Shown here: in pieces, positions 151 to 39,125 of the stretch
Numbering within the stretch: the first letter of the stretch is position 1
Layout: every line of letters starts with the position of its first letter
DNA from: a virus
Length of the DNA stretch: 39,184 bases
Virus genome (UHGV): UHGV-0103155
Direction: 5' to 3' (one strand)
Notes under the pieces: model-generated
Told to the model about the DNA's origin: nothing
The model's input: only the letters and a program-made list of their open reading frames with translations
The model's database searches: none
Position numbers and translations under genes: made by a program

Positions 151-167
151 AATCATTCCCACTCAAT
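151..167. repeat. Left att core copy (AATCATTCCCACTCAAT)
   Basis: Exact 17-bp direct repeat of 39109-39125; contains reverse complement of guaA terminal codons. Confidence 0.6.
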
Positions 168-2304: not shown

Positions 2305-5061
2305 TTAGCTACTTTCAAGCATTGCAAGACGTGATTCTATTTTTTCGATTCTTCTACGCAAATAAGCTGACTCAAGCCATAAACACTGGTCAGTACGGAT
2401 ACCCCACCTATTTCCAGCATTGCAAACCAGAGTTCGCTCTTCTGTTTCGTATTCTTCTTCCATCTCAATTTCGACGCCATCCACAACTTTAGTGATCATC
2501 CTTACCGCCATCACTGGCGCGTATTTATCATCCCATTCATCGTAACAGAGAAGGCCAAATCTGGTTCCATCAATCCCATGCGCGAGGAAAGTGTCTCTCA
2601 CTTGTTGTGCTATAACACCAAAATGCCAGCGGGCACCATCTCCCTTTTCCCTGACGGCATCAAGCCAGCGAAAAGCTACAATCCTGATATCTCCCCATGC
2701 ATCCAGAATTGCATCACCTTCATAACCACGAGACATATACAAGCTGAGCTCACTTGTACTAATCGGTTCACTTTTTTCTCTACCATCTGATGTGTTTATC
2801 GAACCGTTCGCAGAATAAACCTGTGCCCATCTAAATGATGGTGCACCAAGAGATTTGCTGTTATCAATAATTGGTGAAAAATTACCTTTAATGGCAATAT
2901 TTCCAGAGTCGCCGAATATATTAATAACTGCAGAGTCATCACCATGGTTTTTTACGCTTAAGTTTCTTGATGAAATATTTATATCTTTGTTATATCCACT
3001 AACATTAATCCATCTTTTACCATCAATGTGATACCCGTAAATATTTCCGTCTGATTGTTCGTCAGGTGACTCTCTAAGAACAATAGCATCTGCTCCAGAC
3101 GACCATTGTATTTTTGTATCTGTAGGCCTCCAGTTCTTTATAATGAACGAACCATCAGTAAACTCCGTTTTTATTTGTCTATTGTCTACAAATGCGTCTC
3201 TTGGTTTAAACTCACTTGTGTTAACGCTGCTCTGAAGATCAGAAGCAAAAAATCTAAGATTTCCTGTATAACCCTGAGTCTCGGTCAGGTTATACGCAAT
3301 CATAATTCCATTTTCAAACTCAGATGATGTTATTTTAACATCACGGCAATCACCAAAAATGCAATTTCCTTTATCAAATGTTGTTTGAGCTTTGAATTTA
3401 TCAAACCTTAAATTACGAACAGGGAAACCATCAACCTCTAATGCAAAGGATGCAGGAAGGCCAAAGTATTCTGATGGCTTACCTGATGTATGATCAAGAG
3501 TAGTGGCTACTGTATTCTCAAAAACAGTCCCGCTAAAATTATTACCAATTGACGGAAACCTGATTACACTTATTGTACCTTGTATTTCAGGAGAAATACC
3601 AGATAGTGTGATGTTAGCTCCATCAAATGATGCATCTGAATACGTATATACTGATTCACTGCCAGCAATTTTAAACTGTTTAACTGAAGTTATTCTCATC
3701 GACTTTTTATGTTTAAATGTCACTGAGCTTTCAGTATTACTTACAAGATCAATCTGAGGGCTATTCCTTATCGCGATCCCTGACTGGACATAAACGTTAT
3801 TAAAGTGCGTTTTTTCAGGATTTCCCTTCATTGAAAGGCTCCCGTCATTTTCTGTCAGTAGTAGTCCTTTTACCCTCCAATAGCCGACAATCTGTACGTT
3901 ATCAATAACTGAATCACAGCTATCGTATACATGCAACCCTATATCCCAGTCATCACCCAATGAATAAGAATCAGGGTTATTGTATCCTTCAATACCATTT
4001 TTACTTACCATTATTCTCAGGTTGCGTAACTGTGATGCCCTGTTGATACTAACAGCTACGCTCATGGCTTTTGGTGTAGCAGGAGTAACACCTACAGAAT
4101 CTTCATTTGTAAACTCAGTGAACTTACAAGATATCCCTTCAACAATTTTAACTGGTCTTTCATTAGAGATGTTAAAAAAATATTTGTTTTTTTCTCCATC
4201 ACCAGTAAATACAAGATGGGTTCCTTTACTCCAACTTTTTAATAATCTTTCAGGCGCTGGTCTATATGTATCCCAATAATCAATGCCATCACCAATTAAA
4301 GACACTCCAGGAGGCACATCTATGTTCTTAGAAATCATCCATTTACCTGCAGGTATTCTAACGACACTTGCACCAGAATTTATCGCATTAATTAACCATT
4401 CAGACGCATCAACTTCAAAATTTAATGCAGCATATCTTTGCTCAAACGGAACAAAATCAAGAGCGTTAACGTTATCCCGCATCTTATCCTGGAACGTTCG
4501 GTATACTGCTCCAGAACCATACTGAATAAACCAACCAAAACCACCAACAACTCCGGCGATTGCAGCATCAACATAATTGCGCATTGATCGATTATTTACA
4601 GCATCCTGCTCAAGTGATGGATCTGCAAGGTTAGAAATTTTGTTTTGCTTTGCATCGTAATATTTTGCAAGCAAAGATGGTTTCATCAATGCACGTCTGA
4701 ACCATCCAAAACATTGCTGGATCAGCATCGTCAGGTAGTCAAAGGCATCTTCATGCACTTCGGGGAAAAATTTCCCCTGATTGCGAAGGTCTGTCTCCTG
4801 CACCACATCAAGCACACGATCTATCGTAATTCGCCAGCCAGCAGCAAGCGGAGACGGAAGAACCACTGAACCGCCACTATAAGTGCCCGCCCCAGTTACC
4901 GTATAACCGGTATCCAGAACCAATTCTGTTACGTTCCCGTTCAGGTCAGACACCTGAACAACCAGGTCGGATTTTTTGAAAATACGGAAGGTATACGGAA
5001 ATGATGTCGTAGCGCCGTTACCGGTGTATTCGTTGTGGTCAACTTCGGTTGAGACCGTCAT
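2305..5061 (-). CDS. Tailspike/tail fiber receptor-binding protein with C-terminal intramolecular-chaperone-like domain
   Basis: 918 aa; N-terminal virion-anchoring type segment (…YTGNGATTSFPYTF…), long Ser/Thr/Gly/Asn-rich central region, C-terminal about 160 aa beginning SDGREK. Confidence 0.8.
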   Translation of the reverse strand: MTVSTEVDHNEYTGNGATTSFPYTFRIFKKSDLVVQVSDLNGNVTELVLDTGYTVTGAGTYSGGSVVLPSPLAAGWRITIDRVLDVVQETDLRNQGKFFPEVHEDAFDYLTMLIQQCFGWFRRALMKPSLLAKYYDAKQNKISNLADPSLEQDAVNNRSMRNYVDAAIAGVVGGFGWFIQYGSGAVYRTFQDKMRDNVNALDFVPFEQRYAALNFEVDASEWLINAINSGASVVRIPAGKWMISKNIDVPPGVSLIGDGIDYWDTYRPAPERLLKSWSKGTHLVFTGDGEKNKYFFNISNERPVKIVEGISCKFTEFTNEDSVGVTPATPKAMSVAVSINRASQLRNLRIMVSKNGIEGYNNPDSYSLGDDWDIGLHVYDSCDSVIDNVQIVGYWRVKGLLLTENDGSLSMKGNPEKTHFNNVYVQSGIAIRNSPQIDLVSNTESSVTFKHKKSMRITSVKQFKIAGSESVYTYSDASFDGANITLSGISPEIQGTISVIRFPSIGNNFSGTVFENTVATTLDHTSGKPSEYFGLPASFALEVDGFPVRNLRFDKFKAQTTFDKGNCIFGDCRDVKITSSEFENGIMIAYNLTETQGYTGNLRFFASDLQSSVNTSEFKPRDAFVDNRQIKTEFTDGSFIIKNWRPTDTKIQWSSGADAIVLRESPDEQSDGNIYGYHIDGKRWINVSGYNKDINISSRNLSVKNHGDDSAVINIFGDSGNIAIKGNFSPIIDNSKSLGAPSFRWAQVYSANGSINTSDGREKSEPISTSELSLYMSRGYEGDAILDAWGDIRIVAFRWLDAVREKGDGARWHFGVIAQQVRDTFLAHGIDGTRFGLLCYDEWDDKYAPVMAVRMITKVVDGVEIEMEEEYETEERTLVCNAGNRWGIRTDQCLWLESAYLRRRIEKIESRLAMLESS

Positions 5062-5165
5062 GTTAAATCTCCAGATAGTCGCAGCACCCGTTGCGCCGCA
5101 TATCTGGTTATTCTATTACCTGAAAAACCACATATGGATAGAAAGACTGTAAATACGAATAGATA

Positions 5166-5180
5166 TTACCTTTCGGGTAA
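5166..5180. promoter_or_regulatory. Palindromic operator-like site TTACCTTTCGGGTAA
   Basis: Perfect TTACC-N5-GGTAA upstream of LexA box and small antirepressor-type gene. Confidence 0.45.
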
Positions 5181-5217
5181 TTTGCAAAACGTGCTGGATA
5201 GCAAACAAATTATTTGC

Positions 5218-5237
5218 TACTGTATAAATATACAGTT
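5218..5237. promoter_or_regulatory. LexA box (TACTGTATAAATATACAGTT)
   Basis: CTGT-N8-ACAG with AT-rich spacer, near-consensus SOS box, about 20 bp upstream of the ATG at 5257. Confidence 0.7.
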
Positions 5238-5256
5238 ATTACATGGAGAAGATAAG

Positions 5257-5514
5257 ATGCAGCAGTATCACTATCCACTGGAAGACGGATTTACCGAAAG
5301 GATTCACACGCCGGGAGGCGTCAGGTCACTGGTGGAGGGATCGCACTTGATGAAATTACTCCGGGATCTCGATAAGGATGGATTTAATGTCGATGGCCCA
5401 CTTGCCGAACTGACTGCACTGATTAACTACGTCACCAGCTCACAGATGTCTATGCAGGATCTACAAACACATCTCGACTATTGTGCCGAACAATTACGAA
5501 AACAAACCAGATAA
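5257..5514 (+). CDS. Small antirepressor-type protein (C-terminal domain of the downstream antirepressor alone; Tum/Gifsy-antirepressor-like context)
   Basis: 85 aa from internal ATG; clearly similar to the C-terminus of the 5830-6540 product; LexA box immediately upstream. Confidence 0.55.
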   Translation: MQQYHYPLEDGFTERIHTPGGVRSLVEGSHLMKLLRDLDKDGFNVDGPLAELTALINYVTSSQMSMQDLQTHLDYCAEQLRKQTR

Positions 5515-5545
5515 GGTTTGCAATTACCAAGTGGAGTGCTTATAT

Positions 5546-5560
5546 TTACCTTTGAGGTAA
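5546..5560. promoter_or_regulatory. Palindromic operator-like site TTACCTTTGAGGTAA
   Basis: Perfect TTACC-N5-GGTAA, itself flanked by inverted repeat GGAGTGC/GCACTCC. Confidence 0.45.
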
Positions 5561-5651
5561 ATTTACAACGCACTCCTCTTATGCCATAGTAATCGGGCAC
5601 TGGCAAAATCCAGTGCCGGGATTGGCGTCCCGGGTTACTAAGTGGCGCATA

Positions 5652-5680
5652 CCACGCCAGACGTGGTTTTTTTATGCGTT
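5652..5680 (+). terminator. Rho-independent terminator
   Basis: Stem ACCACG/CGTGGT with 5-nt loop followed by T7-8 run, after the small antirepressor gene. Confidence 0.6.
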
Positions 5681-5829
5681 AAGCACAGCTATATCCGAAT
5701 TATGGTGGGCTGGGCAGGGGTCCGAAAGGACGCCGGTACCACTTAGGCCGGTACGCCAACCTTGTCCAGTTCACCACCAGTAATTGGCGTTGCGGTGGTG
5801 ATTAAAATCACTAAGTGGAGATAACCACC

Positions 5830-6540
5830 ATGGCTAATGCTCAAACTGCCATCTTCAAATTTGAATCTGTTAACCCTATCCGTTCCATCATTATCGATGG
5901 CCAACCATGGTTTGTAGCCCAAGACGTTTGTAGTGCGCTGCGTATCCAAAACGTCACCCAAGCACTTGAAAAACTGGATGATGATGAAAGGTCTATGTTC
6001 AACATAGGGCATGAACATCGTGCAATTTTTGACAGCCGAGTAAAAGAGATCAACATCATCTCCGAGTCAGGCCTCTACACACTGATCCTCCGCTGCCGCG
6101 ACGCAGTGACACCAGGCACTATCCCCTACCGCTTTCGTAAATGGGTTACAGGTGAGGTTCTTCCTCAGATCCGCCGCACCGGAAGTTACATTAAAAACTC
6201 GCTCCCGCAGGAAGAACGCATAAAGATGGTTGCCGACCAGGTAGCCAACGCCACGGCGTCAGCAGTAATGCAGGCGATGAAGATAGAGAACAAAACCTAC
6301 AGCGCCCCGCTGAAGCCCGGCTACCGCAGCCTGATTCACTCGCCGTCTGGTGTTCTCGGCCTGACGGAGAACTCACTGCTGATGAATCTGCTGAACCAGT
6401 TACAGGACGACGGGCACGACGTATCGGGCGCGGCGGCGGAGCTGACCACCATGTTCTGCTACATCGTCGGTGTGAGTAAATGCCTGCGTGATATCCAGAC
6501 CCACGCGGAATACATCAACGACAAAGCAGGGTTCTTCTGA
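5830..6540 (+). CDS. Antirepressor, Bro-N domain family with Ant-like C-terminal domain
   Basis: N-terminal region resembles Bro-N/phage antirepressor domains; C-terminal domain paralogous to 5257-5514; GGAG before ATG. Confidence 0.75.
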   Translation: MANAQTAIFKFESVNPIRSIIIDGQPWFVAQDVCSALRIQNVTQALEKLDDDERSMFNIGHEHRAIFDSRVKEINIISESGLYTLILRCRDAVTPGTIPYRFRKWVTGEVLPQIRRTGSYIKNSLPQEERIKMVADQVANATASAVMQAMKIENKTYSAPLKPGYRSLIHSPSGVLGLTENSLLMNLLNQLQDDGHDVSGAAAELTTMFCYIVGVSKCLRDIQTHAEYINDKAGFF

Positions 6541-6610
6541 CAGCGGCGGCACAGGGATGTGCCTTTAAATAATTCTGTACGATTGCAGACTGGGGGTGAA
6601 TAGCGTACTA

Positions 6611-6625
6611 TTACCTCAAGGGTAA
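6611..6625. promoter_or_regulatory. Palindromic operator-like site TTACCTCAAGGGTAA
   Basis: Perfect TTACC-N5-GGTAA about 60 bp upstream of the 6685 start. Confidence 0.45.
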
Positions 6626-6684
6626 GAAAGCATTTTTAATCTTCCCTTCAAAACGCGTCCTGTAGCCAAACATGGGAGGACGAA

Positions 6685-7317
6685 ATGAGAACAAATACAA
6701 CAAGAAAAGCGATGCCATACATTATCCCAGAAGCAGATTTCGATAGAAAACTGAACATGTCTGAGAAGAACACTAGTCACACCGAAAGCTACTTAGCGAA
6801 AGGTGTGGTTGATTTCGTTCTTCCGGGATTCACAACACCTTATGGTTATCGCCTTGTAAAATCTTGTAATGGCGATCATTACAGAATGATTACTACCAGC
6901 GATACTCCAGAAACGGTGTATGCGGTTAAGTTAATCTTTCGGGAAGATATCGTCGAAGCCAAAAGAACATGTACGCAGATCATGGTATGGCGTACGCCTA
7001 ATGTTATTCATGACCGTGCTGTTCATGGTTTGCCTCAGATTTTTTTTCAGTTCTTCCTAGAGCAATATGCGATCGTTGTATCTGATGAGCAACAAACAAT
7101 CGATGGGAGAAGATTCTGGGAAAGAATGATTTCTTGGGCTATAAACACCCCAGGATATAATGTATACGTTTCAGATGGCTCTGAAGAAGATAGACCTCTT
7201 AGCTTCATGACATCATGGGATGATTTCTATAGCCAGTGGGCTGATTTCTGTTGGGGCAGTGATAAAGATGTGCATACCCACAGACTACTGGTTATAAGCA
7301 AAGATAAACTGCATTAA
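6685..7317 (+). CDS. Hypothetical protein, AT-rich single-gene cargo (moron)
   Basis: 210-aa ORF with strong GGAGGA RBS, own upstream operator-like site and downstream terminator; Trp/Phe/Tyr-rich; no family recognised. Confidence 0.6.
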   Translation: MRTNTTRKAMPYIIPEADFDRKLNMSEKNTSHTESYLAKGVVDFVLPGFTTPYGYRLVKSCNGDHYRMITTSDTPETVYAVKLIFREDIVEAKRTCTQIMVWRTPNVIHDRAVHGLPQIFFQFFLEQYAIVVSDEQQTIDGRRFWERMISWAINTPGYNVYVSDGSEEDRPLSFMTSWDDFYSQWADFCWGSDKDVHTHRLLVISKDKLH

Positions 7318-7320
7318 TAG

Positions 7321-7345
7321 AAGCCCGCAGCGCGGGCTTTTTTGT
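7321..7345 (+). terminator. Rho-independent terminator
   Basis: Stem AGCCCGC/GCGGGCT then TTTTTTG. Confidence 0.6.
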
Positions 7346-7415
7346 GGACGAAACAAAAGTCAGTGCTACACTCATTGACGCCACATTGAGGTGGCTTATA
7401 GATGGAAATTTCACA

Positions 7416-7600: not shown

Positions 7601-7612
7601 GTGACATGTCAC
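7601..7612. promoter_or_regulatory. 12-bp perfect palindrome GTGACATGTCAC (copy 1 of 3)
   Basis: Exact sequence also at about 25278 and 27542; sits where plus-strand cargo genes converge on the minus-strand lipoprotein gene end. Confidence 0.5.
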
Positions 7613-7989
7613 GCAACGCAATTATTACCGCGCCATGTAACATTTTTAATAATCTTATCAGCACCAAACTCAACGTAAACAGAGCAACTGAAATGGAGTG
7701 TATAACCGCCATCAGTTGTTGCGTATGTGTTTGAATATATAGTATTACCAATTAGATTAGACGTAGTATTATACGTTGTGGTTTGTGGTACGTTATAACT
7801 ACCAGAGCTTGAGTAAACATACACTCTGTTTCCATCTGGAGATGTAAGCTCTCCCTGAGGATACCCCCACTGCTGAACCATTGCGTCTATACTCTGCCCG
7901 CGCCACGTAAGCATATTTCTTTCAAACTGTGCAGCTGACTGGCATCCAACGAGAAGCATAAATCCAAAAATCAAAAATACTTTTCTCAT
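7609..7989 (-). CDS. Lipoprotein, function unknown (possible surface-modifying or superinfection-exclusion cargo)
   Basis: Signal peptide with lipobox LLVGC (MRKVFLIFGFMLLVGC…); Thr/Ser/Asn/Tyr-rich mature region; AT-rich gene. Confidence 0.6.
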   Translation of the reverse strand: MRKVFLIFGFMLLVGCQSAAQFERNMLTWRGQSIDAMVQQWGYPQGELTSPDGNRVYVYSSSGSYNVPQTTTYNTTSNLIGNTIYSNTYATTDGGYTLHFSCSVYVEFGADKIIKNVTWRGNNCVA

Positions 7990-8208
7990 AATTACCCCTA
8001 TCATGGAAAAACAGCACCAATCCACAAATTAACTAGTTATTTTATTATTCTTCCGAACAATACAATTCCGAATACTACAAAGCCGAACCATGCCGCTGCA
8101 CGCAACAGAGATTCCAATTGAAACCCATTTTTATCAAAATGTATGAATAGCATAAAAACGCTGCACATATTAGTACAATAAAAGTTATTTGAACCATCAT
8201 ATCTCCTT

Positions 8209-10683
8209 TTATTGCGGAGTGACATCCTGTGGTCGCCACCAGTATGTCTGGTTAAACTCTTTCTTCGAACGTTGCTCCATTTTACGTAAATAGCCTGGTG
8301 AAAAATACTCCTGCATCTGGTTAAAGATCATGTGATCGAGAGCCGCCTTCAAGTACCAGAGATTCGCACCAGGCATCAAACCTTTCCCCAGCTTCACCAG
8401 ATCACCACCAGTCTGCTCACTCTTCCCTTCCACAGCATTTAACGGTATGCCCTGAGCAATCTTCACTACGTCATCAACCAGACCAGCTACCGGGCCAAGC
8501 ATCGACGCCAGCGCGCCGCTTCCGTACCTAGTGTGATCTGACAATAAAAAGTCACCGTAAAGGCCAAGACCACCACCTTTCAGTAGAGCACCAAGCCAGA
8601 ATTTTGCGGCATCTTCTCCTGTCATCTCTCGAGGATTACGACCAGACGCAAGGTCGTTAAGTTGCTGCGACAAAGCGCCAAGAATGGTCGTACTGGCAAT
8701 AAACGTCGCAATATATGCCGCACGCCCACCAGCAGACGGCATACCCATAGCGCGTGACCAGTGACGCATAACAACCGAGATAGGGAACGATTTAAACAGG
8801 AAAACACTTCTCGTTAATTCACCTTTCCATGTTCCACGCTGAATACCAGAACCGGTTATCAGTTGCTCACGTGCTCCCGGTGTAATAACAGCCATATCAA
8901 CTTCTTCAGTTACGGCACCGAGCAGTTTACGCATTGCCTCAAATTTCACGCGTTCAGGCTCACCAAGATGTTTAACTGCTGAATCAGGGATACGCATAAT
9001 GCTTTCCGGTGTCAGCATCATATTATTACCGTTCCCCCAGTCCTCCTGTTTCGCCAGCTTCCATACGCTCCAGTCTGTGTCAGTAATCCCTTTGCTTTTC
9101 AGGATACGAAAATCAGAGTCATCGAGGCTACGAAGGTCTGGTGTCCGTGACACTACTTCTCCCAGGCTTCCCATCATGGTTACGCCATAGGCGCGCTTGT
9201 GCGCATCTGACCATGCTGTAAGCCCACTGGCACGCATTACCGCCGTTGCCGCCCAACGAGACACTGACGGCCCCATATTATCCATCGCCCAGCGGTTAAC
9301 GCTGCCAAGTAGAGATTCCATCGCCAGACCAGCGCGGCGCGCCCGCGCAAGTTCTGTACGGTTCGTTGGGTCCATAGCTTCAAGCTGGTTGCGGAATAAC
9401 TGGTTCATTGGAAGGTTGGTAACCTTCGCAGACAGATACATGGTTCCAAGATCAGAGAACGATGACAGCAACGCGGATCCGAGTCTGCTGGCAACCAGCC
9501 AGTTGCGGATATTGTCAGACCATCGCGCGATGTGCGGATTCGCTACAGGCTGTGTCTTTCCGGAAATAAAGTTGTACAGATTCTCTGTGTTGTTCGCCAG
9601 CCGCTCGACTTTACCGGTTTTACTCGGGTTAGCTGTTGCCGTTTCTGCCTTCACCTGATCAAGAAGAGAGCGGAAAACATGATCGGGGTTTGGGCCATAT
9701 GTTTCCACCAGTGCAATATCTTTACTGATACCTTCCAGGTGACCGACCATGATTTCCCATAGAGAGCGATCGCCATAAAGTTGCTGATATTGCAGATAGG
9801 AATCTGCATCTTTGAAATGTATCTGTCGTGATGCATTACCACGGTTAGCACGTGCGCCGGAAATTCGCATTCCGGTATCAGTAAGCTTATTCAGCCCACC
9901 AGTAGCGATCGTGTTATAAGCCTCTCCAAGAAATGAAGACAACTCGGCATCGTTCATCAGTTGTCCATCGGCTCGGATATAATATTTGCGATCCAGCTTA
10001 CCTATAACATCGCTAACCCACTTATCCTTTGATACTGCCCCAACCTTTTCCATAGAATGATGTTGAGGGATCCCCCAGTTTTCGAGATAGCCAATGTCCC
10101 CACCAGCATCATTAAACCGGCGGCGCAGCAGCTCTGTAACTTCTCTCCACGCCTTAGCACCGTTTCTTGCTTTAGCATTGCCAGTATTTTGCCCCCGCAT
10201 TTCATATACCAGGTCACGTACGCCCGCTTCATCTTCAAACAGACCAAAAAAGCGAGGATCAACTGCTTCGAATGCCTCCTGCAATTGACTCAATGCATAA
10301 TCACGGGTGGCTTTTGTTCTGGATTCAACAGAGAGGAAATTAGATTTACCGTCTGCATTAAAAGCTATAGTACGGTTAAGAGCGCCAAGTTTCCCATCAG
10401 CCCCTTGATAGCTATTGATAAATTTATCCAATCTCTGACGCGCGGCTATAGTGAGAGCCACACGACGTTTCTTTAATGCCGCTTCTCGCTGTAATTCTTC
10501 AGATGCCAATTGTGCTGCTCGATATAGCCGCTCTGATTCGGAAAGTTGTCGCCACGATATAGGGTCATCACGAGCAATGGAGCGCATATTTCGATAAATG
10601 CGGTCTTCAATGTTCTGTATTTCTCGCGCCGTTAACGTGCGCTGCGCCGCCTGCTGGACCGCTTGTATACATTCCTGTCTCAT
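8209..10683 (-). CDS. Large internal virion / DNA-ejection protein
   Basis: 824 aa, one of three consecutive large ORFs between tail-tube genes and tailspike, position equivalent to T7 gp15/gp16 core proteins. Confidence 0.55.
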   Translation of the reverse strand: MRQECIQAVQQAAQRTLTAREIQNIEDRIYRNMRSIARDDPISWRQLSESERLYRAAQLASEELQREAALKKRRVALTIAARQRLDKFINSYQGADGKLGALNRTIAFNADGKSNFLSVESRTKATRDYALSQLQEAFEAVDPRFFGLFEDEAGVRDLVYEMRGQNTGNAKARNGAKAWREVTELLRRRFNDAGGDIGYLENWGIPQHHSMEKVGAVSKDKWVSDVIGKLDRKYYIRADGQLMNDAELSSFLGEAYNTIATGGLNKLTDTGMRISGARANRGNASRQIHFKDADSYLQYQQLYGDRSLWEIMVGHLEGISKDIALVETYGPNPDHVFRSLLDQVKAETATANPSKTGKVERLANNTENLYNFISGKTQPVANPHIARWSDNIRNWLVASRLGSALLSSFSDLGTMYLSAKVTNLPMNQLFRNQLEAMDPTNRTELARARRAGLAMESLLGSVNRWAMDNMGPSVSRWAATAVMRASGLTAWSDAHKRAYGVTMMGSLGEVVSRTPDLRSLDDSDFRILKSKGITDTDWSVWKLAKQEDWGNGNNMMLTPESIMRIPDSAVKHLGEPERVKFEAMRKLLGAVTEEVDMAVITPGAREQLITGSGIQRGTWKGELTRSVFLFKSFPISVVMRHWSRAMGMPSAGGRAAYIATFIASTTILGALSQQLNDLASGRNPREMTGEDAAKFWLGALLKGGGLGLYGDFLLSDHTRYGSGALASMLGPVAGLVDDVVKIAQGIPLNAVEGKSEQTGGDLVKLGKGLMPGANLWYLKAALDHMIFNQMQEYFSPGYLRKMEQRSKKEFNQTYWWRPQDVTPQ

Positions 10684-10688
10684 TTAAT

Positions 10689-12491
10689 TTAACCTCTCAA
10701 GAAACACGCCACAGCGACATCAAACAGGCTGGAATCCTGTATTGCCTGCTCACTTTCCCTGTTCGCTTCATCCAGTACTTCACGCGCACTGCGCGATTGT
10801 GGATTACCATCATCATCCAGCACGGTGATTATCATGTCAGGTGATTCAAGCAGCGAGTCTTCAGCTATGCGCAGATCAATATCTCCTGCCTTATCTGACA
10901 TCATTTTTTGTTCTGCCTGTTGCAATATTTTATCAGGCTCAAAAGGAGCTACTTCGTCTGGCGTCCTGACCTCTGCTGTTTTATAGAATGAAACAGCCTG
11001 AGCATTAAGTTCACTTTCTGCCTGCTGTCGCCGTGCCAGTTCTGCTCGAGCTTCAAAAAACTGACCGCCAGGCTCATGCGGTGCCAACGCGTTACGAGAA
11101 AATTCCAGGCGTTCTTGTGCCTGCCGGATTCGTTGGTCAATATCGCGAAGTCTGGCCTGTTTATCTGATCGAGCACGAGATAAAGCCTTACCGCTACCGG
11201 TTGGCTCTTCTGCAAGAATTTGTGCGCGCTGTTCAGTGAGATTTTCAATAATTCGTTGGCTATTAGCGATTTCAGACTGGTAAACCTGTCTATCGCCACG
11301 CGGTAAAAGCTGCGCGGCCTGTTCTTCAAGCAACCGATTTTCTATAGCGCGCGCCGTTACTCCATCATCTACAGATGACAGAGCCTCATTAACTGCCTGA
11401 GACAGCAGACTCTTGCGCCCAGGAATTTCACTGAAAGATGCAGACTCAACAATGCTGGCAACGTCTACAGGTCTCCCCTGGCTAACATCAGACATAGCTT
11501 TTCGCATAGCCTGAATGTGAGAATTGCGCGAAAGCACGTTGATCGGCACGCCGGGCGCAATATCAATTTCAGCATGATGAGCGGCATTCGCCGCCAGTGC
11601 AGCATCAACATCAACTGGTGAAAAATTTGGTGCGCTTGTAGACTCGCCGCGAGAGTTAATAAATCTGCCGACACCACCAAACGCCACTCCAAGAACAGCA
11701 TCAATAGCAATTGCCTGTCGATCCAACACATCATACTGGTTAGCCATTTCGCTATAGCCACCATCACGAAGCGTTTTTGCAGTAAGCCCACGCTGTGCCA
11801 TACCGAACGCAATATTTGTACCTGCGGCATAGGCAATATCTGGCGTTGCACGTACTGCTGTTGCTGCGGCGCGTCGCACTGAACTTTCACCCGTCCGCGC
11901 AAGCTGAGCCGCCACACCTTCCGCCAGCGCACCACCAGCACGTAACCCGAGGCTCATAGGGATCAGTGTTCCGGCACCAGCAGTAATACCCTGCACTAAT
12001 CCCGCTTCCTGCGCCGTCCTGAAATCAACACCCTGTGCTGTAAGCCGTTCAAACTCAGAAAAACCCTGTAGAGAAGTTACCGCCGCAGCACCTCCGACCG
12101 GACCACCGAGCGTTGTACCGACAACAGCCTGCCCGCCCATATCGAACAACCCATAAAGGACCTGCCCGGCGGTTCCGGTTGTCGCGGCATCAGGCGTCAG
12201 CCGCTTAACCTGCTGCTCTGCTAGTTTTCTCTGCTCAGCAATGTATGAAACTGAAGTGTCATTGATCGAGGTGTTTTCGTTAACAAACTGAGCAATCGGG
12301 GATACGATTTTATCCATCCCTGCCCATAGCAACTGATCTGGCTTTGCCACCAGCCCGGAGTACAAACCAGACAATGCCGCTCCTACAGCATTGTCGAAAA
12401 AACCAACATCGCTGTTAAAGCCAGCTGGATTTGATGCTGCTTCGTCAAGCTGCTGATTCTGGTTTACTGGATTAAGGCCAAAGTAACTCAT
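10689..12491 (-). CDS. Internal virion / DNA-ejection protein
   Basis: 600 aa, Ala/Gly-rich, in the ejection-protein block; translationally coupled to upstream gene. Confidence 0.5.
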   Translation of the reverse strand: MSYFGLNPVNQNQQLDEAASNPAGFNSDVGFFDNAVGAALSGLYSGLVAKPDQLLWAGMDKIVSPIAQFVNENTSINDTSVSYIAEQRKLAEQQVKRLTPDAATTGTAGQVLYGLFDMGGQAVVGTTLGGPVGGAAAVTSLQGFSEFERLTAQGVDFRTAQEAGLVQGITAGAGTLIPMSLGLRAGGALAEGVAAQLARTGESSVRRAAATAVRATPDIAYAAGTNIAFGMAQRGLTAKTLRDGGYSEMANQYDVLDRQAIAIDAVLGVAFGGVGRFINSRGESTSAPNFSPVDVDAALAANAAHHAEIDIAPGVPINVLSRNSHIQAMRKAMSDVSQGRPVDVASIVESASFSEIPGRKSLLSQAVNEALSSVDDGVTARAIENRLLEEQAAQLLPRGDRQVYQSEIANSQRIIENLTEQRAQILAEEPTGSGKALSRARSDKQARLRDIDQRIRQAQERLEFSRNALAPHEPGGQFFEARAELARRQQAESELNAQAVSFYKTAEVRTPDEVAPFEPDKILQQAEQKMMSDKAGDIDLRIAEDSLLESPDMIITVLDDDGNPQSRSAREVLDEANRESEQAIQDSSLFDVAVACFLRG

Positions 12492-15001
12492 TGCGGAATA
12501 TCTCCGGAGAATCTCTGACGCTTCTGTGTCAGATTAAGAACAACGGGAGAACCATCATCTTTCAGCAGATAACCAGTACCAAGTTTCACCAGGTACTGAC
12601 TATCGCCGTAACTTTGCAAACCATACTGACCAGGCGGTGTTTTTATCCCGGAGCCGACAACTTGTTCATTCCAAGCCTGATTAACCTGCTTATCGAATTG
12701 CTCTGCAGACATTCCCCACGGCAAAAGGACATTCCCCATTCCGTTATAGTCATGCACGCCACCTGTAGCTACGTTAACAGCCTGTTTCCAGACATCATTG
12801 TCAATTTCGCCTGATACCACGCCTTTTTTCGCCATCACACCAGCGTAATAATCCTTTGCGATCTCGTATGCCATTGATGCGCCCTGAGCGTCACCAGCAA
12901 ATGCATCCTTCACCATGTCAGAAAACTCAAGGCGAAGATCAGCATCTTTAGGCATCGGAATACCTTTCGCATCATCAGTACCTTTACGAGCCGCCGCGCC
13001 AGCAAGAATTGTCTGCGCAGCGGTTTCAGGAGACACGGAAACATCCGGATTAAACCAGTTTTTTTCTGCCAAAATACCACCAGGCTTATCCATCAGTATC
13101 CCGGCAACGGCAGCAGATGGAGCGTTGGCACTGATCTGCTGTAGTGCTGACATATACACCTGCCCACCACCAGTGCTCTGCCTGATGGTATCGAGATATG
13201 CTGCCTGTTGGGAAACTGGAGCATCACGAAAGAAAACACCGATCTGATTGGCCTCGTCTTTGGAAAAGAACGTCAGTGGAGTGCCATATGACTTAGCAAG
13301 GTCACTGACCTGAGCGGCACGCAAGGCAACGCTCTGTCCAAAGTTATCCTTATTGCTCATGTCGATAGGCTTTGCCTGTCCGGAGGCAAGAGAGAACTGC
13401 ACAGGATCCGACTGCCGCTGCTTTATCACCTGATTTGCAGCCGAAACAACGTTGTCATAAAGAGTTGCGCGTGCCGCATACCCCTCCCCTGTATCACCAG
13501 TATCCGGGCGTAATTGCTCAACATATGCTGTAATGCTGCTTGTCGGCATGTTGCGGAAAGAGCCTATATACTGTCCGGCGATCTGCGTATTCTTAAACTC
13601 GGTATATCGCAGGTTTCCTTCTCTGACTCCATAAGCTGCAATAAAATCATCCTCACCAGGTGGGTTAGGAAATTCAATGCCACGCATATACGCAGCCGTC
13701 GCATCGCGAACCCGGCTGTCGAGCATCGTTTTATATTCAGCCTGCTGTTGTCTGGCTAGTGCATCAGTCTGTCGCAACACGCTGGCCTGATCTGATTCAC
13801 TTAAAGCATCGAACCAGGCTACACCGGTATAACGTTTATTTTTTGTCGGTAGCTGAGAAAGCCCCAGCGCAGCACTAACACCTGCAGTTAACTGCTGATC
13901 ACTGTATGGCTGGCTACCGTTTTCATGATGGATAATGGCTGCACAAAGCGCCTTCAGGGTATCAGGATTTGATGCATCGAGAGGCTCATCAGCAGAAACG
14001 CCAAGTTGTTCGCACACTGCTTTGATATACGACATAGTGTCATTTTTATCAGTAGGCGGTGCCCAGCGATTAATTATCTCGCTGACGGTATCAATACCCT
14101 GCCGCTGATACGACATCAGGTTCCGCCCTAATGCACGAATACCGTGTTCAGGGGTTTCGAATTTGGCAAAGCGACCATCATCACCAGTCTGCCCAACCCA
14201 CGGATTAGTTTTGCTGTATTCAAGATTGCCGGGGTTATTGTTGCGTATACCGCGGGTACGATCGGAAGAGCCACTATCTGCTACAGCACGGCGAGAACCA
14301 GCAGCAGTATCGCTTAACTCGCCGTTTTGCTGTCTTACCTGAAGATAGTTTGCTCCAATAGCATTTTGAGCAGTTGCTTTTGCTGTTGCTTCTTTAAACT
14401 CGATTTTCTTGGCCTGGATTTGCTCGTCACTCCAGCCATGTGCAATGCCGTAATCCTCAATTTGCTGGAAAGTTTGCTTATTAGCCAATACGTATGCGGC
14501 GTTGTCGCCATACAATGCTGCGGCATTTTTACCATTGTTCAGCAGCGTAGCCTGAAACTGGCCTTCTTCGTAGGCATTTATTTGCCCTATCTCGTGCCGC
14601 CCGGCCTGCGTAGTGAACTGAATGCGCTGCTGCTGCGCCTGCTGCATGAAAGCATTACGAGCCTGTTCATCCGGCAGCGACATAGCCAGTTGTTCGACCT
14701 GAGCATCAAACTGCTGCGTATACTCCTGACCTTTTCCAATAGCATTTTTCCCTTTCAGGTTAAGCAAACCTGTTTCAGGGTTATTCAGCAGATCGCTGCT
14801 TATCTGGCTTAAGCTAAGAGAAGCATCCTGAGCCATAGCAACATTCGCACGCTGTTTTGCCTGCGCAATAATACCTGCATATTGCTCTGCAACATCGCCA
14901 AGTACATCACCGACATTTGGTGTCTGAAACGATGAGAATCCCTGCGTCGAAATCCCTCTGCTCTGAACCTGACGGCCCGATGTTGTTGGTACAACTGGCA
15001 T
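12488..15001 (-). CDS. Large internal virion / DNA-ejection protein
   Basis: 837 aa; position and size match podoviral core proteins. Confidence 0.55.
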   Translation of the reverse strand: MPVVPTTSGRQVQSRGISTQGFSSFQTPNVGDVLGDVAEQYAGIIAQAKQRANVAMAQDASLSLSQISSDLLNNPETGLLNLKGKNAIGKGQEYTQQFDAQVEQLAMSLPDEQARNAFMQQAQQQRIQFTTQAGRHEIGQINAYEEGQFQATLLNNGKNAAALYGDNAAYVLANKQTFQQIEDYGIAHGWSDEQIQAKKIEFKEATAKATAQNAIGANYLQVRQQNGELSDTAAGSRRAVADSGSSDRTRGIRNNNPGNLEYSKTNPWVGQTGDDGRFAKFETPEHGIRALGRNLMSYQRQGIDTVSEIINRWAPPTDKNDTMSYIKAVCEQLGVSADEPLDASNPDTLKALCAAIIHHENGSQPYSDQQLTAGVSAALGLSQLPTKNKRYTGVAWFDALSESDQASVLRQTDALARQQQAEYKTMLDSRVRDATAAYMRGIEFPNPPGEDDFIAAYGVREGNLRYTEFKNTQIAGQYIGSFRNMPTSSITAYVEQLRPDTGDTGEGYAARATLYDNVVSAANQVIKQRQSDPVQFSLASGQAKPIDMSNKDNFGQSVALRAAQVSDLAKSYGTPLTFFSKDEANQIGVFFRDAPVSQQAAYLDTIRQSTGGGQVYMSALQQISANAPSAAVAGILMDKPGGILAEKNWFNPDVSVSPETAAQTILAGAAARKGTDDAKGIPMPKDADLRLEFSDMVKDAFAGDAQGASMAYEIAKDYYAGVMAKKGVVSGEIDNDVWKQAVNVATGGVHDYNGMGNVLLPWGMSAEQFDKQVNQAWNEQVVGSGIKTPPGQYGLQSYGDSQYLVKLGTGYLLKDDGSPVVLNLTQKRQRFSGDIPQ

Positions 15002-15013
15002 CTTATTATCCCC

Positions 15014-15553
15014 TTATCGACCGGTTGGAGTGCCAACAGCAGCAGAAATCGGCGCAGCCTTCTGAGAGAACGGGCTCCACGTTCCGCCGCCCATCTGGTA
15101 TGCACCGTATGCTTTTAGTGGTGCCGTTAACAAAGTGCTGGTCATCGATGATTTAGCAGCCGACTGAGCAGCAGCCCCCTGTGCCTGAGCATTCATTCCC
15201 TGAACCTGATACCCATATGCCTCACGCTGAGCATTATTCACTGTCGTTAACGCATCAAGAGTGCCGAACTGAGCATTATCCGCAAAAACGTCAAGAGCTG
15301 TTCCGCTACTTAATTCCGCACCGGTAGCCCCCATAGTGGCCGCCGCAGTGCCTGAGCGTTGACGCATTTCACGACGACGCTGATCCGCTTCAATATTCCC
15401 ACGATTGATTGAATCCTGTGCCTGAGCTTCAGCAATTTCAGCATTCCGATCAGCTATGGCTGACTGGTATTTTGCCTGCTTGCTCTGGCTGTACATTGAC
15501 GCGGCTGTGGATGCCACTGTGACGGCAACCAAAGCGATGGCTGGGTTACACAT
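15014..15553 (-). CDS. Internal virion protein with N-terminal membrane segment
   Basis: 179 aa, hydrophobic N-terminus then Ala/Gln-rich region; position like T7 gp14. Confidence 0.45.
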   Translation of the reverse strand: MCNPAIALVAVTVASTAASMYSQSKQAKYQSAIADRNAEIAEAQAQDSINRGNIEADQRRREMRQRSGTAAATMGATGAELSSGTALDVFADNAQFGTLDALTTVNNAQREAYGYQVQGMNAQAQGAAAQSAAKSSMTSTLLTAPLKAYGAYQMGGGTWSPFSQKAAPISAAVGTPTGR

Positions 15554-16017
15554 TATTTTCTCTCCATGTGAAATCTGTGGAAATTAAGACCAAGAGCACC
15601 ATAAGGCGCGGCTTCTTCAAGCCTGAATCCAAGCCAGTGCAGCCATGCTTTGGCAACATGGTTTCGCTCGTCGACGTAGTTTTCCAGGCGCGGATAAACT
15701 GCCAGCATCTGCTGCAATACAGGGCGGCAGTGGCGAAGAAATGTCTTCTGATATTTTTCGATACGGCTGGTTCCGACCAGCCAGGGCGTACCATTGCCAC
15801 CGATCATTGACGCCGGAGATACGCCAAACATGGTTACCAGTTCTCCGTTCGCAAATCCTGACCAAGCCATAGTCGCAGTACGCAGACCAACACGCAGCGC
15901 ATCTTCGGTAGTCATCAGCGATACCGCATACAGTTCGTCAATATCAGCCTGACGAACATCCGGCAAAATCATCTGAAGATGCTCTTCGGTAGCGGGAATA
16001 ATTCGAACATCGATCAT
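15553..16017 (-). CDS. Hypothetical virion-associated protein
   Basis: 154-aa ORF translationally coupled between tail-tube B and core genes. Confidence 0.4.
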   Translation of the reverse strand: MIDVRIIPATEEHLQMILPDVRQADIDELYAVSLMTTEDALRVGLRTATMAWSGFANGELVTMFGVSPASMIGGNGTPWLVGTSRIEKYQKTFLRHCRPVLQQMLAVYPRLENYVDERNHVAKAWLHWLGFRLEEAAPYGALGLNFHRFHMERK

Positions 16018-19812: not shown

Positions 19813-20250
19813 TTAACCAGTTACTTTTGAGCGGATCGGATACGGCGTATTGGCATCAACATCAAGGCTGATACCAGCAGAGAATTCGCCAGCCGTTAGT
19901 GGGCCAGTTGCGACGGAGTAGTTAACACGCAGATATCGCTGAACACCGGCAGGCACCTTTGCAGAAACAACTCGTTTACCTGCTGTCAGGGCGGTCTTTG
20001 CCAGTGCGCCACTATCATAAATAGTGGTCCATGAGCTGTTATTCTCACTCGTCTGCAACTGGATGTTTACAGTTGCATCACCGCTTGCCGCGGCGGCTGT
20101 GTTAACCAGCGCCCAAAACTCAAGCGGGTAACCCACGCCGATATCACGACGTTTTCCGTCAATTGGACCGAGATCGATTACGTCAGTAGAAGCCGCGGTA
20201 TTCGTAACCGCCTGAGCTTCGGAGAACATCAACAGTTTGTCGGTGATCAT
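19813..20250 (-). CDS. Hypothetical structural protein (possible capsid decoration/staple protein)
   Basis: 145 aa, Ala/Thr/Ser-rich, immediately downstream of major capsid gene. Confidence 0.4.
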   Translation of the reverse strand: MITDKLLMFSEAQAVTNTAASTDVIDLGPIDGKRRDIGVGYPLEFWALVNTAAAASGDATVNIQLQTSENNSSWTTIYDSGALAKTALTAGKRVVSAKVPAGVQRYLRVNYSVATGPLTAGEFSAGISLDVDANTPYPIRSKVTG

Positions 20251-32884: not shown

Positions 32885-32947
32885 TCACCCATAAGGTAAC
32901 AAAAATCAAGGATAGTTACCCATGGGGTGCATTTACCTGTTGGGTAA
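32885..32947. promoter_or_regulatory. Immunity-region operator cluster: three TTACC-N5-GGTAA-type sites between divergent cro-like and repressor genes
   Basis: Sites near 32885-32899 (1 mismatch), 32916-32930 (2 mismatches), 32933-32947 (perfect); first lies between a TTGATT -35 and -10 of the leftward promoter. Confidence 0.55.
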
Positions 32948-33002: not shown

Positions 33003-33587
33003 ATGAAAAGTATCCAGGACGTCCGCAGGCAAAATCTCAACGACTTGATCGACCGTGAATTCAATGGTGTTCAGACGCGGATGGCAGAAAAACTTGGAAC
33101 TCAGGCAAATCTGGTAAACCGCTGGGCTCTTGGCAAGAAGGTTATCGGCGACCAGGTTGCGCGAAAAATTGAAGCTGCCGCCAATAAACCCCGTAACTGG
33201 CTTGATATCGATCGCTCGCTTTCTCAGGAAGGTTTTCAGCCTGTCGGCCCAAGCGACATTGGTCAGCTGGCGGCTCACAACCTGGAACGCTGGATGAGCG
33301 AAAGCCGCGACCTTTCAACACAGGGAAAACTTCACCGCGCATCCGGCGTCGCCCAGGTGACAATCAGCCGCCTGTTAAACAATGAGGTCAGCGTTTCCAT
33401 TTCCACCCTGGAGAATGTTGCATCCGCATTCGGGCGTCACGGCTATGAATTACTGATTCACCCGCACGACCCTGCGACTATCAACTATGACCGCTCGCGC
33501 TACGCATTGTTACCCGAAACAGAGAAGGCAAAGATCGAAAGTTACATTGAATTTATCATCAGCCAGAACGAAAAAAACAAACAATAA
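33003..33587 (+). CDS. Prophage repressor with two HTH domains, no S24 peptidase domain
   Basis: 194 aa; two XRE-like HTH segments; no Ser/Lys autocleavage motifs; divergent from cro-like gene across operator cluster. Confidence 0.7.
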   Translation: MKSIQDVRRQNLNDLIDREFNGVQTRMAEKLGTQANLVNRWALGKKVIGDQVARKIEAAANKPRNWLDIDRSLSQEGFQPVGPSDIGQLAAHNLERWMSESRDLSTQGKLHRASGVAQVTISRLLNNEVSVSISTLENVASAFGRHGYELLIHPHDPATINYDRSRYALLPETEKAKIESYIEFIISQNEKNKQ

Positions 33588-39108: not shown

Positions 39109-39125
39109 AATCATTCCCACTCAAT
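39109..39125. repeat. Right att core copy (AATCATTCCCACTCAAT)
   Basis: Exact 17-bp direct repeat of 151-167; overlaps guaA stop codon. Confidence 0.6.

Follow-up and report, generated by a model that had tools for sequence, protein, structure and literature searches.

Related immunity systems and the locus

The closest described relative of the locus reported here is the Rep-Ant immunity of phages epsilon15, phiV10 and SPC32H, in which copies of one operator are dispersed over the genome and a LexA box stands before the antirepressor gene ant; the mechanism, with its repressor (Rep) and antirepressor (Ant), has reportedly been established for SPC32H, in studies said to be those of Kim and Ryu in 2013 and of Kim et al. 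in 2016. UHGV virus genome UHGV-0103155, a stretch of 39,184 nucleotides (nt) that we analysed whole and call the window, has the same operator with the same dispersed and syntenic spread, homologous Rep and Ant proteins and the LexA box. Unlike epsilon15 and phiV10, it has an additional operator-gated unit with a foreign cargo, an open reading frame (ORF) of 210 amino acids (aa) that we call ORF210. We read this unit as repressor-gated cargo encoding an induction-coupled accessory protein that resembles the GNATs (Gcn5-related N-acetyltransferases, the acyl-CoA N-acyltransferase superfamily). Taken whole, this reading is an even call; its regulatory and architectural part is quite probable, and the putative acyltransferase activity of ORF210 is put forward as a tentative and rather doubtful element.

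Two other known arrangements invite comparison. The bor and lom morons of lambda and the sieA/immI genes of P22 are likewise extra genes lodged among conserved late genes, with deviant base composition, presence/absence polymorphism and a flanking promoter and terminator. ORF210 differs from them in that its promoter carries the operator of the prophage repressor, with expression predicted at induction, and in that promoter, operator and terminator are parts of a slot reused by different cargo. The control of many intergenic sites across a genome by one repressor is known from gp71 of mycobacteriophage L5, whose "stoperators" are asymmetric and oriented, whereas the sites in the window are palindromic and mostly lie just downstream of -10 elements. 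A repressor-gated cargo slot that holds a member of an uncharacterised, very divergent GNAT-like family is a variation on known things.

The 17-bp att core described for phiV10, epsilon15 and ZX5 (PMC9782041), ATTGAGTGGGAATGATT, is directly repeated at both ends of the window (151-167 and 39109-39125), and the same prophage adjoins yfgI in Escherichia coli APEC O1; the window, with both junctions inside it, therefore contains the whole of a prophage inserted at guaA. Its immunity region is 98% identical to that of phiV10 (genus Uetakevirus), and the whole is a phiV10/epsilon15-like (Uetakevirus) prophage integrated at guaA.

The operator upstream of ORF210

An initial annotation of the window had described ORF210 as an autonomous single-gene cassette with its own operator, of the form TTACC-N5-GGTAA, and its own terminator. 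The landmarks that it named (the ORF, its ribosome-binding site, the palindrome, the terminator, the low content of guanine and cytosine (GC), the orientation and the position) are all present where it had placed them. The operator, however, is phage-wide, and both it and the terminator are fixed parts of a slot shared with other cargo; an operator private to ORF210 is ruled out by its many copies in the window, phiV10 and epsilon15 and by its presence ahead of the other cargos. The sites discussed here, and the repressor that presumably binds the one at 6611, are the following.

6611-6625, unstranded: Rep operator copy TTACCTCAAGGGTAA, left edge of the exchangeable cargo
32885-32899, 32916-32930 (degenerate) and 32933-32947: three Rep sites of the immunity region, between the divergent cro-like and rep genes
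33003-33587, + strand: immunity repressor Rep, 194 aa, tandem helix-turn-helix (two such regions)
33645 and 33707: two more Rep sites, the latter under a promoter TTGACA-17-AATAAT

The window holds 10 exact copies of the motif and 15 at no more than one mismatch, against 0.72 expected. Long ORFs take up 90% of the sequence, and 11 of the 15 fall outside them (p ~8e-9). Besides those in the immunity region, sites precede the terminase, portal and early-left operons, the replication region, int, ant and a gene for a Bro-N protein. The same motif occurs in 14 copies in phiV10 and 15 in epsilon15, at syntenic places, and its sequence, ATTACC-N5-GGTAAT, is identical in the window and in these two phages. 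Seven of the sites are annotated in the epsilon15 RefSeq record NC_004775.2 as "protein_bind: repressor; lysogeny". The palindrome upstream of ORF210 accordingly belongs to the phage-wide set of Rep operators, already annotated as repressor sites in epsilon15. The Rep of the window matches the "Repressor" chain 5d50_A of SPC32H in the PDB (E 6e-42). At six sites, 6611 included, the first T of the palindrome is also the last base of a -10-like hexamer, as would be expected if a repressor bound there were to block initiation. Instead of being autonomous, the unit appears to be wired into the immunity circuit, its Rep operator abutting the -10 element.

An exchangeable cargo in a fixed expression slot

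The slot and its present cargo are laid out as follows.

6583-6611, + strand: weak sigma-70 promoter of the slot (TTGCAG at 6583-6588, 17-nt spacer, TACTAT at 6606-6611)
6674-6680, + strand: Shine-Dalgarno sequence GGGAGGA, 5 nt ahead of the ATG
6685-7317, + strand: ORF210, 210 aa, ATG start, PHROG 1349
7321-7345, + strand: intrinsic terminator, right edge of the slot (stem AAGCCCGC/GCGGGCTT at 7321-7339, loop AGC, T-run)

The last T of the -10 element is the first T of the operator, and the terminator has an 8-bp GC-rich stem (RNA fold of -16.8 kcal/mol, z -3.2). When a 3.1-kb query spanning the region was compared with E. coli genomes, about 562 were found to hold related prophage sequence, and ORF210 was present in only 93 of them. 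Other genes occupy its exact place, which bears out the earlier description of a single-gene cargo in a variable slot:

strain F11, exact slot place: DUF4760 protein
strain E8, exact slot place: 55-aa and 147-aa ORFs
IR53017, exact slot place: 108-aa ORF and DUF2335 membrane protein

Four cargo types share one operator-terminator frame, with a Rep-type site directly 5' of the cargo in each variant. The alignments keep the left flank through the GGTAA half-site and diverge straight after it; they reconverge right after the stop codon, at a hairpin AAGCCCGC-NNN-GCGGGCTTTTTTGTG present in all five cargo variants, and the right flank is the same onwards from that point. Operator and terminator are thus constant whatever the cargo; they form the frame of an expression slot that belongs to the phage backbone, and ORF210 is one of its interchangeable inserts. 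It is found behind two versions of the promoter, that of the window and that of strain IHE3034, where a better one (TTGGCG-18-TAATAT, also in E8) is present, and it is absent from phiV10, epsilon15 and ZX5-type phages. What had looked like a mystery moron may thus be recast as cargo in a repressor-controlled expression socket, and the alternative cargos (DUF4760, DUF2335 and the small ORFs) should then share its regulation and perhaps a biological theme.

The ORF210 gene and its predicted fold

ORF210 is a genuine gene under strong purifying selection. A chance ORF is ruled out by its full-length match to the PHROG 1349 profile hidden Markov model (HMM; residues 1-210 on profile 1-210, E 3e-113), by 63 close relatives in Enterobacterales (37-100% identity) and 918 cluster representatives at 50% identity in an exhaustive profile search, and by a pairwise ratio of nonsynonymous to synonymous rates (dN/dS) of ~0.07 against its homologues, synonymous sites being at or near saturation. 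Its GC content is 40.8%, compared with 48.7% for the window and 49-51% for the flanking ejection-protein genes, and falls at the 5th percentile of 633-bp windows. The gene lies on the + strand between the tailspike gene and the ejection/core genes, which are both on the - strand, and is therefore transcribed opposite to them. The product is a soluble acidic protein of 24.6 kDa (isoelectric point 6.0) in which no hydrophobic or transmembrane segment was found.

A GGAGGAC sequence is kept across the homologues ahead of the gene. The window leader folds with a z of -2.4, and a leader hairpin that sequesters the Shine-Dalgarno sequence was considered and rejected, as the pairing of that sequence was 0.62 in 28 homologues versus 0.64 in shuffles; RNAalifold found no consensus leader structure among the homologues. 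In those of Yersinia, Photorhabdus and Serratia, a terminator-like hairpin with a U-run stands in the 5' leader about 40 nt before the start and is followed by a conserved GTCAGAAGTACTCCG; it may serve as an attenuator or terminate the unit upstream.

The first description had recognised no family, and the profile HMM searches indeed gave only the unannotated PHROG 1349 and 3307. ORF210 had no match in Pfam, NCBIfam, PADLOC-DB v2 or the PDB by sequence, nor in the PDB by profile, and a literature search by accession and PHROG identifier found nothing on the family. All 54 distant relatives sampled match PHROG 1349, to which PHROG 3307 is distantly related; none matched PADLOC, nor did any of the alternative cargos. 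As PHROG 1349 is itself unannotated, membership says nothing on function. The fold search that had been suggested returned a weak GNAT resemblance.

That resemblance comes from an AlphaFold2 model built on a 35-sequence alignment (predicted local distance difference test score, pLDDT, 78.6; predicted template modelling score, pTM, 0.74). It runs through two helices and four antiparallel strands, then alpha, beta, alpha, beta, alpha, beta. With the GNAT fold taken as beta1-alpha1-alpha2-beta2-4-alpha3-beta5-alpha4-beta6, the predicted alpha-alpha-beta4-alpha-beta-alpha-beta core of ORF210 resembles that of the superfamily. The structures retrieved from the PDB by Foldseek were GNATs only, a superfamily that includes NatD/Naa40 (4ua3), Hat1 (1bob) and RimI (5isv), and every top structural match was a member of it or a GNAT-like domain; among the viral models of BFVD uncharacterised phage members of the family came first (template modelling (TM) scores 0.63-0.73), followed by NAT_SF proteins. 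The family segment "G-L-A/P...FF..LL" was set by hhalign on motif A of RimI, and in a manual alignment a Trp falls where the motif-B Tyr of GNATs would be. Conserved positions are T97-Q98 on the strand ahead of the long helix, S-D134-x-x-Q-T138-x-x-G141-x-R143-F-W145 after the next strand, D164-G and W190-G, among which Q98, D134, Q137, T138 and R143 are the conserved polar residues; the chromosomal branch has Ala in place of C96. The model thus points, at a marginal level, to a very divergent GNAT-like alpha/beta core, GNAT-like in fold only. Rare domain fusions of the family (SRA-like, an MqsA N-terminus in P0153, DUF5397 and a C-terminal tail in P0218) were dropped as a functional clue because they are too rare and weak.

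Occurrence of ORF210 in other phages and in chromosomes

ORF210 has moved between phages of unrelated types. In Enterobacter prophages and the lambdoid siphovirus LLS, the interval between Rz/Rz1 and cos/terminase holds a copy with 84% identity; that of LLS retains the TACTAT -10 element and the exact operator, the sole exact copy in the 42.9-kb LLS genome, and is followed by a terminator that differs from the window's. No Rep or Cro-like homologue was found in LLS, and a repressor shared with that phage was ruled out as no Rep homologue is present in it. Other Uetakevirus-like prophages (of Klebsiella grimontii and of a metagenomic host) have their copies in the tailspike/ejection slot beside Rha or Bro-N genes, and in Serratia siphovirus prophages the gene stands between the tail-assembly genes and the tape measure, beside a P22-type ant and arc. 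A family member was also seen, among the viral fold models, in the Agrobacterium jumbo phage Atu_ph07.

Copies of ~50-60% identity stand alone, inserted between housekeeping genes. They adjoin nfsB in Enterobacter, Leclercia, Lelliottia, Silvania and Huaxiibacter, where the ORF is intact, highly conserved and 200 aa long, and hda and bepA in Photorhabdus. More distant members occur beside ArdC-like or polyvalent-protein genes. Two loci, at 851-2148 of one and 4186-5480 of the other, have two family members in tandem (221 aa and 205 aa), for which hhalign gave a probability of 100%, and the family member P0216 likewise has a comparably sized ORF (202 aa) behind it. Neighbour clustering in 68 loci revealed no conserved partner gene, the largest clusters being housekeeping genes (17 loci), and the protein would therefore seem to work without a dedicated partner gene. 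The family is large, lies outside Pfam, occurs in at least three phage architectures and is fixed in several bacterial chromosomes, so that a functional assignment would annotate thousands of genes.

Where the gene occurs without a Rep homologue, in lambdoid, Serratia siphovirus and Symbiopectobacterium contexts, an operator-like site with zero or one mismatch precedes it by 45-112 nt. The five spacer bases are different each time, and synonymous sites are saturated relative to the window copy; in more distant homologues the operator-like site is not present. The simplest reading of such persistence would be a recent export of promoter, operator and ORF together from unsampled Uetakevirus donors.

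The apparent SOS switch and a proposed mode of expression

The slot lies two genes downstream of ant, in a region with the following features.

5166-5180, unstranded: Rep operator upstream of ant (syntenic site annotated in epsilon15 at 19895-19911)
5218-5237, unstranded: near-consensus LexA box TACTGTATAAATATACAGTT, directly upstream of ant
5257-5514, + strand: small antirepressor Ant, SPC32H-type, 85 aa
5546-5560, unstranded: Rep operator upstream of the Bro-N gene, with promoter TTTGCA-18-TATATT
5651-5667: terminator-like hairpin between ant and the Bro-N gene
5815-6540, + strand: Bro-N protein, probably starting at an ATG at 5830, whose C-terminal domain is Ant-like; directly before the slot

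Ant matches the "Anti-repressor protein" chain 5d50_E of the PDB (E 4e-47), and the segment 5166-5514, with its Rep operator, LexA box and ant, looks like the switch through which the prophage senses SOS. In the Bro-N protein (PF02498, E 1e-19; phrog_130 and phrog_450) the C-terminal domain is a homologue of the small Ant, phrog_450 being matched by both, and the prophage may thus encode two antirepressor-type proteins in tandem.

As operator copies stand ahead of the other operons of the phage, we infer that Rep, sitting on 6611-6625, keeps ORF210 off in the lysogen. Upon DNA damage LexA would leave the ant promoter, Ant would be made and would disassemble or inactivate Rep, and ORF210 would fire with the other units under Rep control; in a naive cell it would be transcribed early after infection. 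The product would be a soluble cytoplasmic 24.6-kDa protein with no dedicated partner which, in the mechanism that we prefer, may, as the lytic switch proceeds, bind or acylate a target belonging to the cell or to a rival phage. This makes a clear prediction: lysogens should not express ORF210, and its transcript should rise along with those of the antirepressors. In the related phage ZX5, overexpression of the repressor brought the transcripts of holin and lysin down by over 99.9% (PMC9782041), a drop that fits a global repressor.

In some related E. coli prophages, a gene for a YafO-family toxin and an opposite-strand 147-aa ORF are inserted between ant and the Bro-N gene (1978-2917 and 1977-2916 in two related loci), with a one-mismatch Rep site upstream. 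The ant/Bro-N interval is probably a second cargo position gated by a Rep-type operator.

Evidence against the proposed reading and alternative explanations

Several observations weigh against repressor-gated, induction-coupled expression of a GNAT-like protein. The slot promoter of the window has 7 of 12 consensus matches and was not called by a generic promoter scan. In LLS the gene keeps its operator without a Rep homologue, so that there is no cis gating by a Rep of its own phage there, and the solo chromosomal orthologues suggest a use to the phage-free cell, a poor fit with a role specific to induction. With regard to the fold, the PDB matches are weak (E at least 5e-3, TM 0.30-0.36), hhalign against a RimI-based GNAT profile gave a probability of 0.2%, and none of the 54 distant relatives matched Pfam, Acetyltransf included. 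Motif A, Q/R-x-x-G-x-G/A in the beta4-alpha3 loop of GNATs, is only partial in ORF210 (R111-A-V-H-G115-L-P117): the G-x-A/P is present ("GLA" in the wider family) and the Q/R at -3 is missing.

The foremost competitor, which we hold to be unlikely, is a lysogen-expressed defence or superinfection-exclusion moron, for instance one acting by abortive infection, that shields the host from other phages. The slot recalls the sieA/immI region of P22, between ejection and tailspike genes, the YafO-family toxin and other orphan genes occur in the same region of related prophages, and the long-retained solo orthologues in chromosomes imply a benefit to the host. In LLS, moreover, the gene follows Rz in a bor-like late slot with a promoter and no cognate repressor, and is probably constitutive there. 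However, the Rep operator abuts the -10 element in every Uetakevirus copy, and its predicted silence in the lysogen argues against a classical lysogen-expressed moron. Neither the protein nor its 54 relatives matched PADLOC, and the members in the jumbo phage Atu_ph07, which we take to be lytic, and beside ArdC or polyvalent-protein genes fit poorly with host defence. This last neighbourhood, of anti-defence proteins, is more in keeping with an early counter-defence or host-takeover factor, a non-catalytic GNAT-like pseudo-enzyme that would block a host immunity or repair protein by binding. Early, induction-coupled expression beside the antirepressors is predicted for it, the canonical coenzyme A motif is lost, the Trp in place of the motif-B Tyr points the same way, and the tandem paralogues suggest diversification in an arms race. 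Against it stand the stable orthologues outside phages, the lack of a match to any known anti-defence family (in searches made without a dedicated anti-defence library) and the conserved Q98, D134, Q137, T138 and R143, which are compatible with a ligand or active site; we consider it somewhat less likely still. A broader proposal is that ORF210 founds a very widespread family of divergent GNAT-like effectors, with more than 900 clusters at 50% identity, which temperate phages carry as induction-coupled cargo docked between the operator of an immunity repressor and a terminator. Such effectors would fire solely upon commitment to lysis or a fresh infection and would acylate or sequester a target in the host or a competitor, for counter-defence or takeover; one branch would have been domesticated as a core gene of the chromosome in the Enterobacter-Leclercia group, and the operator-terminator frame would be a reusable dock through which phages exchange cargo. 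This proposal is speculative, its probability falling between those of these two competitors.

The binding partner of the palindrome could also be another than the phage's own Rep, either a conserved host factor or, in trans, the Rep of a co-resident Uetakevirus, in which case the element would truly be the gene's own. The site with zero or one mismatch kept upstream in Rep-less contexts, in spite of a variable N5 and saturated synonymous sites, speaks for this possibility. We nevertheless find it improbable, since three sites lie between the divergent rep and cro-like genes in a classic immunity-region layout, the epsilon15 record annotates the motif as a repressor site, the site is missing in more distant homologues, and recent export from Uetakevirus donors would be simpler. 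A GNAT-type toxin of a toxin-antitoxin pair (TacT/AtaT/KacT-like), which would acetylate aminoacyl-tRNA and arrest growth, is the least credible of the alternatives and very improbable. It is suggested by the rare fusion to an MqsA-type antitoxin zinc ribbon in P0153 and by the C-terminal tail of P0218, which is HigA-antitoxin-like by eye, although Pfam found nothing there; yet no antitoxin-like neighbour is conserved in the 68 loci, the gene is alone in core chromosome contexts, and other GNATs outscore the toxins, to which it has no sequence similarity.

Neighbouring genes and other features of the prophage

The flanks of the slot and the tail genes beyond them comprise the following.

2305-5061, - strand: tailspike, 918 aa
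7419-7577, + strand: gene for a 52-aa secreted peptide, right flank of the slot (signal peptide ending AFA-G, phrog_14503)
8209-15001, - strand: three large core/ejection protein genes

The gene for the 52-aa peptide has a promoter-like TTGACG-16-TATAGA at 7375-7402 and no Rep operator, and is a better candidate than ORF210 for expression in the lysogen. It is kept to the right of the slot in IHE3034, E8 and IR53017, the three E. coli variants with this right flank that were checked, and F11 is without it.

Beside the ejection genes, at 7609-8225 on the - strand, lie a 138-aa lipoprotein gene (LLVGC lipobox, phrog_3716) and a 62-aa membrane ORF, with GC contents of 40% and 34%, neither of which is present in phiV10; they are possible exclusion-type surface proteins. 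A separate, virion-borne GNAT-like protein is indicated in the epsilon15 record, where an HHpred GNAT match is given for the internal virion protein gp13 (11122-11586, syntenic with 15553-16017 of the window), at a position unrelated to ORF210. Finally, the distal two-thirds of the window tailspike have a GC content of just 38.6%, and the otherwise near-identical APEC O1 prophage encodes, unlike the 918-aa protein of the window, an endosialidase tailspike of 1039 aa (3345-6464 in its locus), a difference that looks like the swap of a receptor-binding module.

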